Shown: positions 5,480 through 53,961 of the stretch, one piece after another
How the letters are laid out: each line of letters starts with the position of its first letter
Position numbering within the stretch: position 1 is the first letter of the stretch
From: Verrucomicrobiales bacterium
Lineage (GTDB): Bacteria > Verrucomicrobiota > Verrucomicrobiia > Verrucomicrobiales > DEV007
DNA: 64,000 nt
Assembly: GCA_040905585.1 (NCBI GenBank)
Contig: JBBDRG010000011.1
Location: 95,249-159,248 of the forward strand
Reading direction: 5' to 3'
Notes under the pieces: model-generated
The model's database searches: none
What the model was told of the DNA's origin: nothing
Seen by the model: the letters and a program-made list of their open reading frames with translations, nothing else
Position numbers and translations under genes: made by a program

Positions 5480-5493
5480 TGTTCAAAGGAATA
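5480..5493. promoter_or_regulatory. Putative LexA (SOS) box, Verrucomicrobia type
   Basis: TGTTC-AAAG-GAATA is a 9/10 match to TGTTC-N4-GAACA. It lies inside a longer inverted repeat (tttaactgttc/gaatagttaaa, 5474-5499) and overlaps the RBS 6 nt before ATG 5500. Confidence 0.6.
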
Positions 5494-5499
5494 GTTAAA

Positions 5500-5928
5500 A
5501 TGTTTTACGATCAAAGTCAGCCAGAGCGTTCCCAGTGGGAAGGGTTTCCCGAATTCAAGGAGTTGGCGGAGACCGAAGCCGCCTGCGAGGATGCCGGGGA
5601 CGTGGCGCTGAATTTTCCCGACGAACGGCAAATCGCGGGATCGGAACAGCCAAACGCCAACCGAGGCAGGCTCGGAAGCCGGGAATACGACCGCGAACTG
5701 ATACGGAGCGTCTGGGAATTCGCCGAAGTCGTTTCGGGCAACGACAAGGAGCTTTGGAGAAAAGACGAATTCGGCGACTGGATCAACCGATGCGATTTCG
5801 GCAAACGGGATTCCGAGTTCGGCTGGGAAATTTTCGACCCCGGGGTCGGGCGCCATGCCCAGGGAGTCTACGCGATGCGTCCGATGCAGTGGAGAAGCTT
5901 CGTTCGACAGTTCGAGGCCCTGGCCTGA
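5500..5928 (+). CDS. Hypothetical protein with a degenerate HNH-endonuclease-like domain
   Basis: VW..A..V.G.D...WRKDEFGDWINRCDFGKRDSEFGWEI matches the N-part of small HNH proteins, but the D-H-x-x-P and N-L...N-N catalytic residues are replaced (IFDP, AMRPMQWRSF). Confidence 0.7.
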   Translation: MFYDQSQPERSQWEGFPEFKELAETEAACEDAGDVALNFPDERQIAGSEQPNANRGRLGSREYDRELIRSVWEFAEVVSGNDKELWRKDEFGDWINRCDFGKRDSEFGWEIFDPGVGRHAQGVYAMRPMQWRSFVRQFEALA

Positions 5929-42917: not shown

Positions 42918-44369
42918 TCACTCCGTCCCGGCGGGATGCGGCGTCGGGGCCGCCGGGTGGTTTTCGCCGAGATAGCTCGTTTCCGACGGGGTCAGAATAT
43001 CGCCCTCCGAGCCCTTGCCGACCAGGTTGCCCGAGATCAGCGTCCCCGGAGAGTCGCCCACGACCTCGATCGCGGCGACCATCTTGGGTTCCTCGCCCCG
43101 ATGCACAATGACGTTGTCCGACACCCGCGTGTTGCGGCTCTCCGAGACATAGAGGCCGCGATGGTTCGGCTCGAAAATCTGGCAGCCGCTGACCGTCGTC
43201 TCCCGGGAGTTCAGGATCTCGATCGACCCGCCCTGCTTTTCGTCCCCGGCCCGGTCGAGGAGAAGACCCTTCAGAATCACCCCGTCGCAGTCCTTCACCG
43301 TGACGCCGTTGGTGAAACCGCCGCGAAAATTGTGGCTCTGGTCGAGAGAGTTGTCGCCCACGACGATGTGGTGGCACTCCTCGAAGTTCAGAGTGCGCTT
43401 GACCCCGGTATAGATGTGGTTGCCCGAGATCGCGATGCCGCGGCTGCGGACCAGGTGGATGTTCGTCTCCTGGTTGCCAATCAGGTTGCCGGTGATGGCC
43501 CATAGGCCCGAGAGCGTGCGTTCCACAGGACGTTCCGGTCCGATGAAGCGGATGTTCGCTCCGCCCGGACTGGGGCGCGCCTGGATCGTGTTGCTCACGA
43601 TGCTGCCCTCCGCGAGGCTGCCTTCGCGCATGTCGAAGAGAATGTCCGCGCTGCCCTCCGATTCCGTGTCGAAGTTGTATTCGATGTCGCACCCCGTGAC
43701 GTGGAAATTCCGGATCTCGCCGCCGAGCACCACGATGCCGCCCCGCTTGTTGTAGCTGATGTGGGACCCTTGGATAATGCACTGGTGCAGGTTGACCTCC
43801 TTGAAAAAAATGCCGATCTCCGAGTTTTCGTAGACGTGGCAGGCGTCGACGAGCACGTTCCGGTTGCGCTCAGTCACCACGATGCCGTGGCGCAGTTTGC
43901 GCAACAGGAGCCGCTGCAGCGTCGGCTGCATCGTGCCGATCAACTCGATCCCGTCCGCTTCGGGATGGTCTCCCACGATCTCCAGACCCGTCACCTGGGG
44001 CATCCGTTCCCGCTCCCAGACTTCCGGCTTGAAGCTGGTCGGTCCCGCCGTGCCCTCGTGGGTGCCGACGATGCGAAGCGCTGGCCCTGGACCGGTCATG
44101 AGCAGGCGGGCCGTGCCGCCCGAACCGTCCATGGAAAAGCGACCGATCGCGGCCAGGTCCACCTCCAGCGTCTCGGTGAGGCGGTAGTCGCCGCGCGGCA
44201 GCCGCACCACCCCGTCCGCCGATTCGTCGATGGCGCGCTGAATGGCGGCGGTATCGTCCGTCTCCCCGTCGCCCGCGGCCCCGAAAGCGAGGACGTCGTC
44301 GGCGGCGAGGTCATTGGCGAAGGCGAAGGCGAGGCAGGCGAGAAGAAGTGGAGCGGTGCGAAAAGTCAT
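42918..44369 (-). CDS. Right-handed parallel beta-helix protein (pectate-lyase-like fold)
   Basis: FGAAGDGETDDTAAIQRAID start, followed by many I.GN/I.DN/ISGN beta-helix repeats. Confidence 0.85.
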   Translation of the reverse strand: MTFRTAPLLLACLAFAFANDLAADDVLAFGAAGDGETDDTAAIQRAIDESADGVVRLPRGDYRLTETLEVDLAAIGRFSMDGSGGTARLLMTGPGPALRIVGTHEGTAGPTSFKPEVWERERMPQVTGLEIVGDHPEADGIELIGTMQPTLQRLLLRKLRHGIVVTERNRNVLVDACHVYENSEIGIFFKEVNLHQCIIQGSHISYNKRGGIVVLGGEIRNFHVTGCDIEYNFDTESEGSADILFDMREGSLAEGSIVSNTIQARPSPGGANIRFIGPERPVERTLSGLWAITGNLIGNQETNIHLVRSRGIAISGNHIYTGVKRTLNFEECHHIVVGDNSLDQSHNFRGGFTNGVTVKDCDGVILKGLLLDRAGDEKQGGSIEILNSRETTVSGCQIFEPNHRGLYVSESRNTRVSDNVIVHRGEEPKMVAAIEVVGDSPGTLISGNLVGKGSEGDILTPSETSYLGENHPAAPTPHPAGTE

Positions 44370-44647
44370 GGTTGGTGCCAAAGGTTTAGCGAATCGGTCG
44401 TCGGAAGCAACTGCGAAGAGTTGCCTCGGGCAAGCGGAATTCGGAACCTTCGTCCCGGCTACGAGGGGGCAGACCGCCAGCCTGCACAGAGGCAGTCGAG
44501 GAACGGAGGAATCGAGGAATTTGTAGATTTGTCTCTCGATCCGCTTTTCGCCCCTCCCTTTTTCTGCTATCTAATGCTCCCCGGACCGACCGAATGACGA
44601 AAACCGGCGGCGCGACAAGCCCTTGACAGAAAACGAAGGCCGACCAC

Positions 44648-44661
44648 TGTTCTAAAGAACA
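44648..44661. promoter_or_regulatory. LexA (SOS) box, Verrucomicrobia type
   Basis: Perfect TGTTC-TAAA-GAACA, 41 nt before the MTase ATG and 19 nt after a perfect TTGACA (44623-44628), so it overlaps the expected -10 region. Confidence 0.75.
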
Positions 44662-44702
44662 TCTTTCCAGGAGCTGCTTTTTAAACCGTCTCAATTTTCC
44701 AG

Positions 44703-45902
44703 ATGCCAGAACCGTTCACAGTGGTCGATCTCTTCTCCGGTGCCGGAGGCATGAGTTTCGGCTTTCACCGGCATCCTTCCTTCAAGCTGATCGCCGCCGC
44801 CGATGCCGAGATCGGGAAGCCCAGCATGGGAGCGGGAACCCTTCAGTGCAATTCCACCTACGCCAGGAACATGGGCTTCGCCCCGACCCGGGTGAACCTC
44901 GCGGATCTGGAACCCGGACGGCTTCGCGAGGCTCTCGGTCTCTCCCCGACCCGGGAAGTCTCGGTGCTGTCCGCGTGCCCGCCCTGCACCGGCTTCAGTC
45001 GGGCCAATCCGGTAAACCATCTGCGTGACGATCCGCGGAACAACCTGGTTGTGCGGGCCGCGGATTTCGCGCGGGAACTCGGGCCCGACATCGTGGTCAT
45101 GGAAAACGCGCGCGAACTTCTTCGAGGAAACTTCAAAGACCACTTCAACCACTTTCGCGATTCGATGGAGTCGGCGGGCTATGCCGTTTCCGCGCGTAAC
45201 CACGTCCTGACCTGCTTCGGGATCCCGCAGATCCGGGAGCGGGCCGTGGTCATCGCCGCGAGGAAGCCCTTCCTCTTGAAAACCTTGGACGACCTGTGGG
45301 AAGGGTTCTCGGTGAAGGAATCCCATCTCACGGTGAGAGCCGCCTTCGCGGCGATTTCGGACCGGGCCAGCGGCGTCGACGACTTCCCGTCGATTTCGGA
45401 CCCGGGAGTGCTCGCCCGCTTGCGGGCCGTTTCCCGCGACGGCGGATCGTGGCTGGAACTCGTGTCCCATCCGGATGGCGAGGTCCTCATGACTCCGGCC
45501 ATGAAGCGGCTCGCCGCTCGCGGAAAGTTTGGCTCGCATCCCGACGTGTACGGCCGGATGAGCTGGGACAAACCCGCGCCAACCATCAAGCGGGAGTGCG
45601 CCCACATCGGCAATGGCCGGTATGCCCACCCCGAAGAAGACCGGCTTTGTTCCGTCCGGGAAATGGCCATGCTCCAAGGGTTTCCCAACGACTTCGAATT
45701 CGTCGGCACCTCGCTCGCCAACCAATACCGGCACATCGGGGACGCGGTTCCCCCGTTGATCTCCCACCAGCTCGCCCACGTTTGCGAGTGGATCCTGACC
45801 GGGAGAGCGAAAACTCCCGCGGACACCTTTCTTCCGGGAACTCACCTGAAGCCCTCGTCGCTGACCCGATCCCGGCAAGAAGATCTCTTCCAGTATGCCT
45901 GA
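44703..45902 (+). CDS. DNA (cytosine-5)-methyltransferase
   Basis: DLFSGAGG (motif I), CPPCTGFS (IV), MENA (VI), QIRER (VIII), SVREMAMLQGFP (IX) and YRHIGDAVPP (X). Confidence 0.93.
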   Translation: MPEPFTVVDLFSGAGGMSFGFHRHPSFKLIAAADAEIGKPSMGAGTLQCNSTYARNMGFAPTRVNLADLEPGRLREALGLSPTREVSVLSACPPCTGFSRANPVNHLRDDPRNNLVVRAADFARELGPDIVVMENARELLRGNFKDHFNHFRDSMESAGYAVSARNHVLTCFGIPQIRERAVVIAARKPFLLKTLDDLWEGFSVKESHLTVRAAFAAISDRASGVDDFPSISDPGVLARLRAVSRDGGSWLELVSHPDGEVLMTPAMKRLAARGKFGSHPDVYGRMSWDKPAPTIKRECAHIGNGRYAHPEEDRLCSVREMAMLQGFPNDFEFVGTSLANQYRHIGDAVPPLISHQLAHVCEWILTGRAKTPADTFLPGTHLKPSSLTRSRQEDLFQYA

Positions 45903-46614
45903 ACCCGACTCGCCCCATTCCGCCGCCGAATCCAGAAGGGTGGCGGAGTTGGTATCCGCCCTGAGGACCGAGGTCGAGGCGACCATTTCGCCCGATTCGC
46001 CGTTGATGTCCGAGACGTTCGTGGACGAGTTCCAGTCCCGCCTGCTCACCCAGCACGTTTTCATCGGCACCCCTCTCTTCCAAGAGGGATTCGATCGGGC
46101 GATCATCGCATCCGCCGCGGCCGCCGGCTTCGACGTGGCCGAGGCGCCCGGCGGACAGCGCTTCTGGGATTTGAGCCTGAACGGCCGGAAGGTCAGCCTC
46201 AAGTCCAGCAAGGCCAAGAACTTGATGCCGCACAAGCTTCACATCAGCAAGCTCACCGAGGCGGCCTGGATCCAGGATTGCCGGACCGCCGCCAAGCGGC
46301 AGAGAGCGACTTTGAATCTCTTCGAGACCTATTGCTCCGAGGTGGATGAAATTCTTCAGCTTCGCTATTTCGCGCGCTCCGCCACCTACGAACTCGTGGG
46401 CGTCCCGGTGCGCCTTCTTGAGCAAATCCTCGATTTGCCCACGTCGGAATTCCAAGCCGACGGACCCACCATCAACATTCCGGTGGGGAAGACGCCGCCA
46501 GACTTCACGCTCAAGATCGACCGATCCGACGCGAAGATCACCCTCGCCAACATCCTGAAAGCGAACTGCATCGTCCACGGGGCCTGGGTGCTTCCGCCTC
46601 CGGCCACGCCATAG
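45895..46614 (+). CDS. Putative restriction endonuclease (PD-(D/E)XK-like)
   Basis: Overlaps the MTase stop by 8 nt; FWDLSLNGRKVSLKSS resembles a D...xLK nuclease core; 239 aa, no signal peptide. Confidence 0.6.
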   Translation: MPEPDSPHSAAESRRVAELVSALRTEVEATISPDSPLMSETFVDEFQSRLLTQHVFIGTPLFQEGFDRAIIASAAAAGFDVAEAPGGQRFWDLSLNGRKVSLKSSKAKNLMPHKLHISKLTEAAWIQDCRTAAKRQRATLNLFETYCSEVDEILQLRYFARSATYELVGVPVRLLEQILDLPTSEFQADGPTINIPVGKTPPDFTLKIDRSDAKITLANILKANCIVHGAWVLPPPATP

Positions 46615-50327: not shown

Positions 50328-53120
50328 TCAGAGCAGCTTGCGCAGGTAGCGGCCCGTCAGCGAGGCGGCGCTCTCGGCGATGGCCGCGGGCGATCCCTCC
50401 GCCACGATGCTCCCGCCGGCCTCGCCGCCGCCCGGCCCCAGGTCGACGATCCAGTCGGCGCACTTGACGACGTGAAGATTGTGCTCGATCACGACGAGGG
50501 TGTTTCCCTGGTCGCGGAGGCGGTAGAAGACGTCCAGCAGCGTGGCGATGTCGGCGAAGTGCAGGCCGGTGGTCGGCTCGTCGAGCAGGTAGACGGTTTG
50601 GCCGGTGGCGGTTTTGCCGAGTTCGGCGGCCAACTTGATCCTCTGGGCTTCGCCGCCCGACAGGGTCGTGGCCGACTGCCCGAGCTTGACGTAGCCGAGC
50701 CCGACGTCGCGAAGGGCGCGGAGTTTCTGGCCGATCCCCGGGATTTTCTGAAAGAATGTCAGGGCCTCCTCGACGGTCATTTCAAGGACGTCGGCGATGC
50801 TCTTGCCTCGGTAGGTGACGTCGAGCGTCTCCCGGTTGTAGCGACGGCCGTTGCAGGATTCGCAGGTGACGTAGACGTCGCTGAGAAAGTGCATGTCGAT
50901 CTTGATGAGTCCGTCGCCCTGGCACGTCTCGCAGCGTCCTCCCGCGACGTTGAAGCTGAAGCGCCCCGGTCCGTAGCCGCGGGCGCGCGAAGCCGGCAGT
51001 TGGGAGAAAAGATCCCGGATCGGGGCGAAGACGCCGATGTAGGTGGCGGGATTCGAGCGCGGGCTGCGGCCGATGGGGGCCTGGTCGATGACGATGGCCT
51101 TGTCGACGTGTTCGAGACCGTCGACGCGGTCGTGCTCGCCGGGACGTTCCTTGCTCTGATGGAGGCGGCGGAAGAGAACCCGCCGGAGAATGTCGTCGAC
51201 GAGCGTCGATTTGCCGCTGCCGGAGAGACCGGTGACGCAGATGAATTTCCCCAGCGGGAAGCGCACTTCGATGTTCTTGAGGTTGTGCTGTCGGGCACCG
51301 TGGATGCGAAGCTCGCGCGTCTCCGCTTCCAGGGAGGTCGGTGGCGGGATCTCGATTTTCCGGCGGCCGGAAAGGTAGGCGCCGGTGACGGACTCGGGAT
51401 CGGCGATGACTTCCTCGGGCGTGCCCTGGGCGAGCAGGCGACCGCCGCTGTCTCCGGCGCCGGGACCCAGGTCGACGAGGTGATCGGCGGCGCGGATGGT
51501 GTCCTCGTCGTGCTCGACGACGATGACGGTGTTGCCGACGTCGCGCAGGTCGCGCAGGGTGGCGATGAGCTTCTCGTTGTCCGACTGGTGCAGGCCGATG
51601 CTCGGCTCGTCGAGCACGTAGAGGACGCCCGCGAGCCCGGCGCCGAGCTGGGTTGCCAGCCGGATGCGTTGGCTTTCGCCGCCCGAGAGGGTGCCGCTCT
51701 GCCGGTTCAGGCTGAGATAGCCGAGGCCGACGGTGTCCAGAAAGGCGAGGCGTTTCCGGACCTCGTCGAGCACCTCGGTCGCGTAGGTCACCTGGACGTC
51801 GGAGAGCCGGACGCCGTCGAGCCAGCGGAGCGCGGCGGCGATGCTCAGTCCAGTGAAGCCTTCGATGGAGAGCGGCGTCTCCTCGTGGTCGAGCGTGATC
51901 GAAAGGATCTCGTCCTTGAGACGCCGGCCCTCGCAGTCGGGACAAGGCTTCGGCGACATGAAACGCCGCACGTTGCGTTTCGTCATTTCGCTTTTGCTCG
52001 TTCCCAGCAGCCGAAGCGCCTGGTTGGAGAGCCCCTCGAAGTCGTCGTTGCCGAAGAGGAGCGCCTTCTTGAATTCCCGGCCGAGACTTCGGATCGGCTC
52101 GTCGAGATCCGCCGAGTAGGTCGCGGCAAGCTCCTCGATGGCCCGCTGGTGAAACCCCTTTCGTTTTTTCGATCCGGACCACCACGTCTTGATCCCGCCG
52201 TCCCGGATGGATTTGTCGGGGTCGGGAACCATCAGTTCGCCGTCGGGCACGAGGCGGGTTCCGAGGCCGTGGCAGGTCGGGCAGGCACCGAGGTGGCTGT
52301 TGAAGGAGAAATGCTTCGGCGTCAGCTTCGGAAGCGAGAAGCCGGTTTCGGGATTGGTGAAATTGAAACTGAAGTCGTGCTGCTCGTAGTCGTCGGTCCC
52401 GGGAGGTTGAACCAGGACGGCGATCCGGTTTTCCGACACCTTCTGCGCGATCTCGAGCGAATCGGCCAGGCGACTGCGGATGTCCTCGCGCACCACGAGA
52501 CGGTCGACCACGACCTCGGCGGTCTTGGCCTTGATCTTGTCGGGCAGTTCCTCGATCTCCGCGATGTTCCCGTCGAGCCGGGCCCGCAGGAATCCCTGCA
52601 CGCGGTAGCGTTCGAGCACGTCCTTGAGTTTTTCGCCTTTCTCCCGCTCGACCGGCGCCGCCAGAACGACGCGGGTGCCCTCCGGGAAGGCGACCAGGAA
52701 ATCGACGATATCCTTGACCGTGTGGCGGACCAGCGGCGTGCCCGTTTCCGGGTCGTGGGGCTGACCGAGCGCGGCGTAGAGAATCCGGAGGTAGTCGTAG
52801 ATCTCGGTGGTCGTGGCGATGGTGGACCGGGGATTGGGCTGCGAACTCCGCTGCTCGATGGCGATCGCGGGCGTCAGTCCCTCGATGAAGTCGACGTCCG
52901 GCTTTTCCAGTCGATCGAGAAACTGCCGCGCGTAGGCGGAGAGCGACTCGACGTAACGACGCTGCCCCTCGGCGTAGAGAGTGTCGAAGGCGAGCGAGGA
53001 CTTTCCCGAACCGGAGACGCCGGTGACGACGACGAAGCGGTTCCTGGGGATTTCCAAATTCAGGTTCTTCAGGTTGTGCTGTCGGGCTCCCTGAATTTTG
53101 ATCAACGCGTCGTCGCCCAT
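50328..53120 (-). CDS. uvrA: Excinuclease ABC subunit A
   Basis: [34 protein letters not shown], two ABC cassettes ([16 protein letters not shown]) and Zn-finger CxxC pairs. Confidence 0.96.
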
Positions 53121-53424
53121 TTGGAAGTTGTTCGGAACGGAAGAGGACAACATTGAGACATATCGCTTCGCCGCAACCGGAGTATAAACCCGGAAGGGTT
53201 GTTTCGCCGCCCGAAACGAGGTAAGGTAGGCGATGTCCGTCGTGATCGAGCTTTTCCCGCATGAGGACGGGACCGCCCTCAATCCGAAGCGCCGGGAGGA
53301 GCTTGCCGGGAATGCTTCTCCGGCGCGTCTCGATCGACGAATCGCGGACGGTGGGGAAGCTTGCGCGAACTCGGCGCGGTGCCGGGAGTTTCCGAGAGAC
53401 ATTTCGCTTTGATCCGCACAGCCC

Positions 53425-53961
53425 ATGTCAGCGCCCGAACGTCGAAAGTACAGAACGTTGAGGAATATCGGGGCGTCCGCGCCCGGAGCGAATCCCGCCG
53501 GAGTCGGCGACGGGAAAAGTGCCGGGCCGGAGGAGGAGGGCGACGGAGCGCCGGCGCGCGTTCTCGTGGCCCATCCGGTGGCGTCGACGTCCCGGCTCGT
53601 CCGGGAGACGCTCGAGAGCTTTACCGGGTCGCGGGTCGAGACGTCTTCCAATCCCCTGCGGGCTTTCGAACTGGCTTTGCAGAAGCCCTACCGGCTTTTC
53701 ATTTTCGCCATGCAGATGGGCGAAATCACCGGGCCGATGCTCTACGAATTGATTTCCAAAGCCTACACCGCCGGACGCGGTCCGAAACAACTGGCGCCGG
53801 GCGTGATTTTCATTCGCGAAAAGGACGATGCCAAACTGCCCGAGGAACTGTCCCGGGACGTCCGGGTGAAGGACGTCCTCACCAAACCGCTCCGGATCGA
53901 GCGACTCCTCCAGCCGGTCGCCGGCGTTCTCGAGGTGCGCGATCCGACGACGGGGACGTAG
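53425..53961 (+). CDS. Stand-alone pseudo-receiver (atypical response regulator) domain protein
   Basis: RVLVAHP...LFIFAMQM...GPML...VLTKPL follows the REC fold pattern, but the acidic pair and phosphoacceptor Asp are missing. Confidence 0.7.
   Translation: MSAPERRKYRTLRNIGASAPGANPAGVGDGKSAGPEEEGDGAPARVLVAHPVASTSRLVRETLESFTGSRVETSSNPLRAFELALQKPYRLFIFAMQMGEITGPMLYELISKAYTAGRGPKQLAPGVIFIREKDDAKLPEELSRDVRVKDVLTKPLRIERLLQPVAGVLEVRDPTTGT

Follow-up and report, generated by a model that had tools for sequence, protein, structure and literature searches.

The window analysed here, a 64,000-nucleotide (nt) stretch of contig JBBDRG010000011.1 from an uncultured Verrucomicrobiales bacterium, probably carries a mobile two-gene type II restriction-modification (R-M) operon, with the methylase gene first and the nuclease gene translationally coupled to it, whose promoter is under the control of the host SOS repressor LexA. 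Because the promoter shares a rare operator with the host's own lexA gene, DNA damage very probably turns the cassette on. By computation on metagenome-assembled genomes, we infer from the following features that LexA binds this promoter and represses it, that damage induces it and that the two genes are transcribed together.

44623..44628, plus strand: -35-like hexamer TTGACA, read from the sequence
44648..44661, no strand assigned: candidate LexA operator (TGTTCTAAAGAACA), a 14-bp palindrome that perfectly fits the Verrucomicrobia-type motif as TGTTC-TAAA-GAACA
44703..45902, plus strand: C5 cytosine DNA methyltransferase (M gene), 399 amino acids; PF00145, PADLOC, TIGR00675
45895..46614, plus strand: SmaI-like type II restriction endonuclease (R gene), 239 amino acids; PF17411, PADLOC
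42918-44381, minus strand: beta-helix protein, the divergent upstream neighbour

The palindrome begins 19 nt past the TTGACA hexamer and thus covers the expected -10 position, which is a statement of where it lies and not of a recognisable hexamer. It is the one perfect TGTTC-N4-GAACA in the 64-kb window, and 41 nt (44662-44702) separate it from the methylase ATG at 44703. The M stop and the R start overlap by 8 nt (ATGCCTGA), and in guanine-cytosine (GC) content the cassette does not differ from its surroundings. A first-pass annotation of this DNA had noted both the perfect palindrome 41 nt upstream of a C5 methyltransferase and a coupled putative nuclease behind it. Both are borne out, and the overlapping open reading frame (ORF) encodes a type II restriction endonuclease. 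The annotation's chance estimate for the box, about 0.02 per 64 kb, also agrees with the value of about 0.026 per 64 kb that we computed from base composition.

The candidate operator and the host LexA

The genome that contains the window (G000; 5.25 Mb in 103 contigs) encodes a LexA of 205 amino acids on contig C59, with matches to LexA_DNA_bind (PF01726, E = 1.5e-17) and Peptidase_S24 (PF00717, E = 3.5e-20). This is the single LexA_DNA_bind match in G000. The LexA motif of Verrucomicrobia is reportedly TGTTC-N4-GAACA, a description said to come from Erill et al. in 2016. Five perfect copies of this motif occur in the whole 5.25-Mb genome, compared with 2.1 expected from base composition, and all five are immediately upstream of start codons: those of lexA, a PA0069-type radical-SAM gene, two Y1_Tnp genes and the cassette methylase. 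The copies other than that of the methylase lie 3-28 nt upstream of their genes. At lexA the box (TGTTCTTAGGAACA on the coding strand) is perfect and ends 9 nt before the ATG. The supposition that the host is a Verrucomicrobium with its own type of LexA is therefore confirmed by its place in the Verrucomicrobiales, its canonical LexA and the perfect box at lexA. We take the radical-SAM gene (NF033668, E = 1e-133) to be the splB-like gene that reportedly belongs to the SOS response of this phylum.

Boxes with one mismatch lie over the start of ssb and upstream of two more Y1_Tnp genes, an integron-integrase fragment and a 142-amino-acid ORF at position 5500 of the window. These were judged by hand, as a crude GC3-based gene caller covered only 72% of the genome.

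The arrangement of the cassette promoter is also found at lexA within the genus. In the lexA promoters of G000 and of two congeners that carry the cassette (G013 and G015), the box comes 18 nt after a -35-like TTGCGC, and the layout of a -35-like hexamer, 14-19 nt and then the box is common to the cassette and the genus lexA promoters. Perfect boxes are present at the lexA promoter in five of eight other sampled genomes of the genus (four without a cassette homologue), and the lexA box of G013 has one mismatch. Genome-wide, G013 has seven perfect boxes and G015 has five, and the reversed control pattern gives 0.

The box at related cassettes

Three orthologous cassettes carry a recognisable box upstream of the methylase.

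G013 (congener): methylase 70% identical; TGTTCGCTTGAACA, 0 mismatches; 18 nt past TTGACA and 7 nt before the ATG
G015 (congener, locus L010): methylase 65% identical; TGTTCGTAAATACA, 2 mismatches; 4 nt before the ATG
Akkermansia sp. metagenome-assembled genome (MAG; locus L034): methylase 62% identical; TGTTCACATGAACC, 1 mismatch; 14 nt past TTGACA

The arms of the box are kept at these cassettes, while the spacers and the surrounding promoter have diverged. In the G015 cassette, a 7+7 inverted repeat (GTTTGAATATGTTTCAAAC, L010 2766-2784) is situated directly upstream of the degenerate box within an AT-rich promoter.

Presence of the box follows the motif that each host uses at its own lexA. 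Five cassette hosts have a perfect or one-mismatch box in the lexA promoter: G000, G013, G015, the Akkermansia MAG (perfect) and the host of locus L011. The cassette box occurs in four of these five and only in such hosts, so the first-pass expectation that it would be conserved upstream of orthologous methylase-nuclease pairs holds in four of the five genomes that use the motif. In the Verrucomicrobiota hosts of L029, L031 and L047 the motif is absent both at lexA and at the cassette. The box was found in none of 28 copies from other phyla whose locus includes the methylase promoter. A scan of these cassettes for LexA motifs of their own phyla (CTGT-N8-ACAG, GAAC-N4-GTTC, cyanobacterial and alphaproteobacterial) was likewise empty, and their promoters have no palindrome in common. 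A search of 400 Verrucomicrobiota genomes gave two further cassettes, both without a box, and none of about 30 metagenome relatives (at most 61% identical) has one in its promoter. Because the operator is absent from most copies of the cassette and matches the operator of host lexA, it is not intrinsic to the cassette.

Two other Verrucomicrobiota have lexA promoters without TGTTC-N4-GAACA (L181:1440-1490 and L182:1440-1495). These contain the palindromes GTCCA-C-TGGAC and CCGT-GGA-ACGG between TTGAC/TTGAA and TATAG, which hints at a different LexA motif in these lineages.

A supported clade (100/99) in the methylase tree comprises the copies of G015, L011, the window and G013. The Akkermansia methylase falls outside this Verrucomicrobiales clade in an unresolved region of the tree, and its box is compatible with a second independent gain, without being proof of one. 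It is conceivable, though on balance doubtful, that SOS control has captured a type II R-M system more than once, in the Verrucomicrobiales clade and separately in Akkermansia, with restriction that would be inducible and not constitutive.

Several observations weigh against LexA control of the cassette. The first-pass annotation had put the box over the expected -10 of a TTGACA promoter; the position stands, but no TATAAT-like -10 is recognisable at the palindrome, and a consensus scan of the cassette promoter found no sigma-70-type promoter. The window and G013 methylases are sister copies in the tree, so their boxes are not independent gains, and the G015 box, with both mismatches in one arm, may be bound weakly. 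The closely related L011 cassette has no box though its host has the motif at lexA, and LexA control would therefore be dispensable. In G000, no boxes were found at uvrA, uvrB, dinB and ruvB, and recA has only a two-mismatch box (TGGACACCTGAACA) and isolated half-sites. The host LexA regulon consequently appears small, with several mobile-DNA functions among the boxes examined. Since these classical SOS genes are without a box, membership of the cassette in the regulon is not to be judged by the company it keeps. Finally, induction of the nuclease together with the methylase would bring no obvious advantage over constitutive expression.

The missing -10 consensus and the boxless L011 cassette would both fit a palindrome that is a chance occurrence or a relic with no regulatory effect on the cassette, and base composition alone predicts about two perfect boxes per genome. 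This explanation is quite unlikely. All five boxes that are actually seen lie just upstream of start codons, and the box is kept in G013, G015 and Akkermansia despite diverged spacers and flanks. With 7 perfect boxes in 5.4 Mb, one would fall by chance within 60 nt of the G013 orthologue start with a probability of roughly 8e-5; for a box with at most one mismatch within 60 nt of the Akkermansia cassette start, the corresponding rough value is about 3e-3. The background in the fetched loci is 27 boxes with at most one mismatch in 626 kb.

The box might also be a genuine LexA site that serves the divergent beta-helix gene or damps read-through, and not the methylase-nuclease operon, since it lies within a divergent intergenic spacer of 320 nt. 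However, it is 41 nt from the methylase ATG and about 270 nt from the beta-helix start, and the TTGACA hexamer is oriented toward the methylase. In G013, G015 and Akkermansia, the box is still beside the methylase even though the neighbours upstream are unrelated. Because the box accompanies the cassette into unrelated contexts, we regard control of the divergent neighbour as highly improbable. LexA control of the methylase-nuclease operon remains the interpretation that we favour.

Spread of the cassette

The methylase-nuclease pair behaves as a mobile cassette, because homology is limited to the two genes and the flanks are unrelated. A tblastx comparison of the window with G013 and G015 finds homology only at 44697-46595. 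Close cassette orthologues are present in just these two of 36 congeners; a third congener has a distant nuclease homologue (26% identical) without a box. A search of species-representative genomes gave 269 confirmed relatives of the nuclease family, and 80 of their loci were fetched. The same methylase is immediately upstream of the nuclease in 43 of the 80, and the pair extends over at least ten phyla that include Verrucomicrobiota, Planctomycetota, Thermodesulfobacteriota, Synergistota, Cyanobacteriota and Actinomycetota. The window cassette itself is flanked by the beta-helix gene on the minus strand and by a gene for an alpha/beta hydrolase.

Two further observations concern individual branches of these families. 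The cassette methylases of L029 (a Verrucomicrobia MAG) and L048 (a Spirochaetaceae MAG) are nearly identical, with terminal branches of about 0.06-0.07 and a sister-pair support of 100/99, which suggests either a very recent transfer or a binning error. Loci L052-L088, many of them from Nitrospirales, Acidimicrobiia and sponge-associated MAGs, encode distant nuclease homologues (33-47% identical), and no homologue of the cassette C5 methylase was found within 4 kb of them. These nucleases presumably pair with a different type of methylase or are solitary.

The methylase

The methylase matches PF00145 over its full length (E = 8.7e-39), the PADLOC model MTase_II (E = 4e-67) and TIGR00675 dcm (100.3 bits). 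Its catalytic set is complete: FSGAGG (residues 11-16), PPC (93-95), ENA (134-136), QIRER (176-180) and GDAVPP (346-351) are present, and motifs I, IV, VI, VIII and X are invariant in the orthologue alignment. Motif I (FSGAGG) already begins at residue 11, with no N-terminal helix-turn-helix (HTH) extension ahead of it. Autoregulating C5 methylases of the SsoII/EcoRII/MspI type were considered as a model for the cassette and rejected for want of such an extension.

This architecture bears on whether the palindrome is the operator of some other regulator, such as a cassette-encoded protein, the methylase, a LexA paralogue or a phage-type S24 repressor, in which case expression would not follow the SOS response. 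C proteins or the methylase itself are the usual regulators of type II R-M systems, and in one congener, G031, LexA_DNA_bind gives a second, weak match. However, the first-pass annotation had named binding of the palindrome by the methylase as a way to refute LexA control, and such autoregulation through an N-terminal HTH is excluded by the start of motif I at residue 11. Neither in nor beside the cassette is there a small HTH controller gene of the C-protein kind, as that annotation had also stated; a Pfam search gave no match for either of the two small ORFs in the spacer upstream. The cassette has no room for vsr either, although no search was aimed at that gene. Furthermore, G000 has no second LexA_DNA_bind protein, the box is identical in type to the one at lexA, and the promoters of orthologues in other phyla share no palindrome. 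A regulator other than LexA is thus very improbable.

The nuclease

The nuclease aligns through residues 30-231 with positions 30-238 of the 240-position SmaI model PF17411, at a marginal 29.3 bits (cut-off 27.3), and it matches the PADLOC model REase_II over its full length (E = 9e-17). No NCBIfam match was found, and a search of its profile against PDB chains returned nothing significant. An AlphaFold2 model built from 61 homologues has a predicted local distance difference test (pLDDT) score of 91.6. Its best PDB fold matches are the restriction enzymes ThaI, NhoI, EcoRV and DpnI together with Hjc resolvase, all of them weak (template-modelling (TM) score about 0.4). These matches point to the PD-(D/E)XK fold, with restriction enzymes at the top of the list. 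Residues D92, S101-x-K103 and E122 are invariant across the 61 homologues. This D...SxK core with a displaced glutamate resembles that of Cfr10I/NgoMIV-type enzymes, which read CCGG cores, and such a specificity may fit a SmaI-like site. Avoidance of CCCGGG in the genome gave no signal (ratio 0.89), and no GC-rich 6-mer stood out when palindrome avoidance was used to guess the recognition site.

Together the two proteins are best described as a predicted type II R-M system with separate M and R genes. A different possibility is that they form a LexA-controlled pair for DNA repair or processing, in which a cytosine methylase would be joined by a nuclease acting on damaged or mismatched DNA and not in defence; control by the SOS response would then be no surprise. 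The atypical D...S-x-K core, the marginal SmaI score, the low fold similarity with Hjc resolvase in the list, the unavoided CCCGGG and the company of ssb and the PA0069 radical-SAM gene in the SOS regulon are all consistent with such a pair. Nevertheless, we judge it unlikely. The full-length match of the nuclease to a type II restriction endonuclease model, those of the methylase to type II methyltransferase models and the sequence-specific restriction enzymes at the top of the fold matches argue for R-M. The two genes are strictly linked in at least ten phyla, amid non-homologous surroundings, as expected of a mobile R-M cassette, and most copies lack a LexA box altogether.

Other loci with LexA-like boxes

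A one-mismatch LexA-like box (TGTTCAAAGGAATA) at 5480-5493 of the window ends 6 nt before the ATG of the ORF at 5500-5928 on the plus strand. The predicted protein (142 amino acids, beginning MFYDQSQPERSQW) has no Pfam or NCBIfam match and may be the product of a further SOS-regulated gene. A long ORF at 50328-53651 on the minus strand contains the UvrA Walker motif GVSGSGKS, and no box with two or fewer mismatches occurs upstream of it.

Elsewhere in G000, four IS200-like Y1_Tnp copies (MR.ARIRGEGKSYYH...; C10:3425, C79:20746, C11:33367 and C87:76750), two of which look broken, are each preceded at short distance by a perfect or one-mismatch LexA box. A TTGACCTGTCCC-like (or TTAACCTGTCCC) element is common to three of these copies. 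This pattern suggests a family of SOS-controlled transposase-like genes. The C84:3722-4540 region has a one-mismatch box (TGTTCTTATGAACG) that extends over the start of an ORF of 271 amino acids; the C-terminal part of this ORF is a partial match to the integron integrase model TIGR02249 (E = 1e-24). The placement of this box is reminiscent of integron integrases in other phyla, which are known to be under LexA control.

Relation to known systems

The cassette resembles the Verrucomicrobia LexA regulon in its operator sequence, in the placement of the operator over the promoter as at lexA, and in the presence of lexA, ssb and the splB-like PA0069 gene with boxes in the same genome. To the extent that we could check, the regulon as described consists of repair, mutagenesis and uracil-glycosylase/splB genes, and an R-M operon is not among its reported members (PMC8565304, which cites the work on this regulon and does not state the motif sequence).

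Transcription of both M and R genes is gated by a repressor and operator at the promoter in R-M systems with C proteins, such as PvuII, Esp1396I and Csp231I (PMC2377437, PMC8053105, PMC6765115), and in these systems the level of the nuclease is likewise tied to prior expression of the methylase. The cassette differs in having no C gene and in relying on what would be the global SOS repressor of the host. Its signal would be DNA damage and not the time since entry into the cell.

Another likeness is to DNase colicin operons and to the SOS-induced toxins symE and tisB (PMC1891008), in which LexA keeps in check a nuclease or toxin that could harm its own cell, along with a protective partner, until damage frees them. 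The Caulobacter BapE endonuclease, cited in PMC12907096, is a further LexA-repressed case. Modules of the colicin and SOS-toxin type are often on mobile DNA, as is the cassette. They kill, arrest or are exported, however, whereas an R-M system methylates its own genome and acts on incoming DNA, and there is no sequence relationship between these modules and the cassette.

LexA also controls functions of mobile elements, including integron integrases, SXT and other integrative and conjugative elements (ICEs), and prophage induction. The boxes that precede the integron-integrase fragment (one mismatch) and the four IS200-like genes of G000 would be of this kind. Unlike the cassette, the SOS genes of integrons, ICEs and prophages promote movement or recombination and not restriction. 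An R-M parallel may exist in Bacillus subtilis, where Au et al. in 2005 reportedly placed the BsuMI methylase operon ydiO-ydiP in the LexA regulon. If this is right, R-M cytosine methylases lie behind a LexA box there as they do in the cassette, but the BsuMI restriction genes are in a separate operon, and the motif and phylum are also different.

The literature that we searched contained no description of LexA or SOS control of an R-M system, and a 270,000-character review of R-M biology from 2025 does not mention LexA. A LexA-controlled R-M operon would not be a new category; it would join two known kinds, the SOS regulon member and the transcriptionally regulated type II R-M system.

Proposed mechanism and implications

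If LexA does act at this promoter, then in an undamaged cell its dimers would sit on TGTTCTAAAGAACA, where RNA polymerase needs access to the -10 region. With the site occupied, both genes would be transcribed at no more than a low basal rate, still enough to keep the chromosome methylated. Single-stranded DNA that arises from damage, stalled replication, some phage infections, conjugation or transformation would lead to RecA filaments and to self-cleavage of LexA. The operator would then be vacated, and the methylase and nuclease would rise together.

Three benefits could follow from this arrangement. We prefer a logic of selfish elements and defence, in which the cassette is cheap and quiet for most of the time and is boosted when foreign or damaged DNA is present. 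A mobile element that listens to the SOS signal is preferred because LexA boxes also precede the integron-integrase fragment and the IS200-like genes. In second place, extra methylase could re-methylate DNA synthesised during repair, and the nuclease would rise merely through the structure of the operon. Damage-triggered self-killing ranks third.

The usual picture of R-M systems is one of barriers that are always in place, and the only regulation of them known to us solves the establishment problem of making methylase before nuclease in a new cell. A LexA-governed cassette would instead tie the strength of restriction to the physiological state of the cell, with restriction boosted when damage, phage replication, conjugation or transformation yields single-stranded DNA that RecA can sense. 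Besides control by C proteins, by the methylase itself and by antisense RNA, LexA would provide a further mode of R-M regulation, and the SOS response would be directly linked to the control of horizontal gene transfer. The amount of foreign DNA that a stressed cell accepts would change, in a state in which integron integrases and functions linked to competence are also induced by the SOS response. There would be effects on phage-host dynamics as well, and on the cost of carrying an R-M system through self-restriction and 5-methylcytosine mutagenesis. The cassette would add a concrete, testable case of mobile elements that listen to the SOS signal of their host, and it would extend the small LexA regulon of Verrucomicrobia, gut Akkermansia relatives included.

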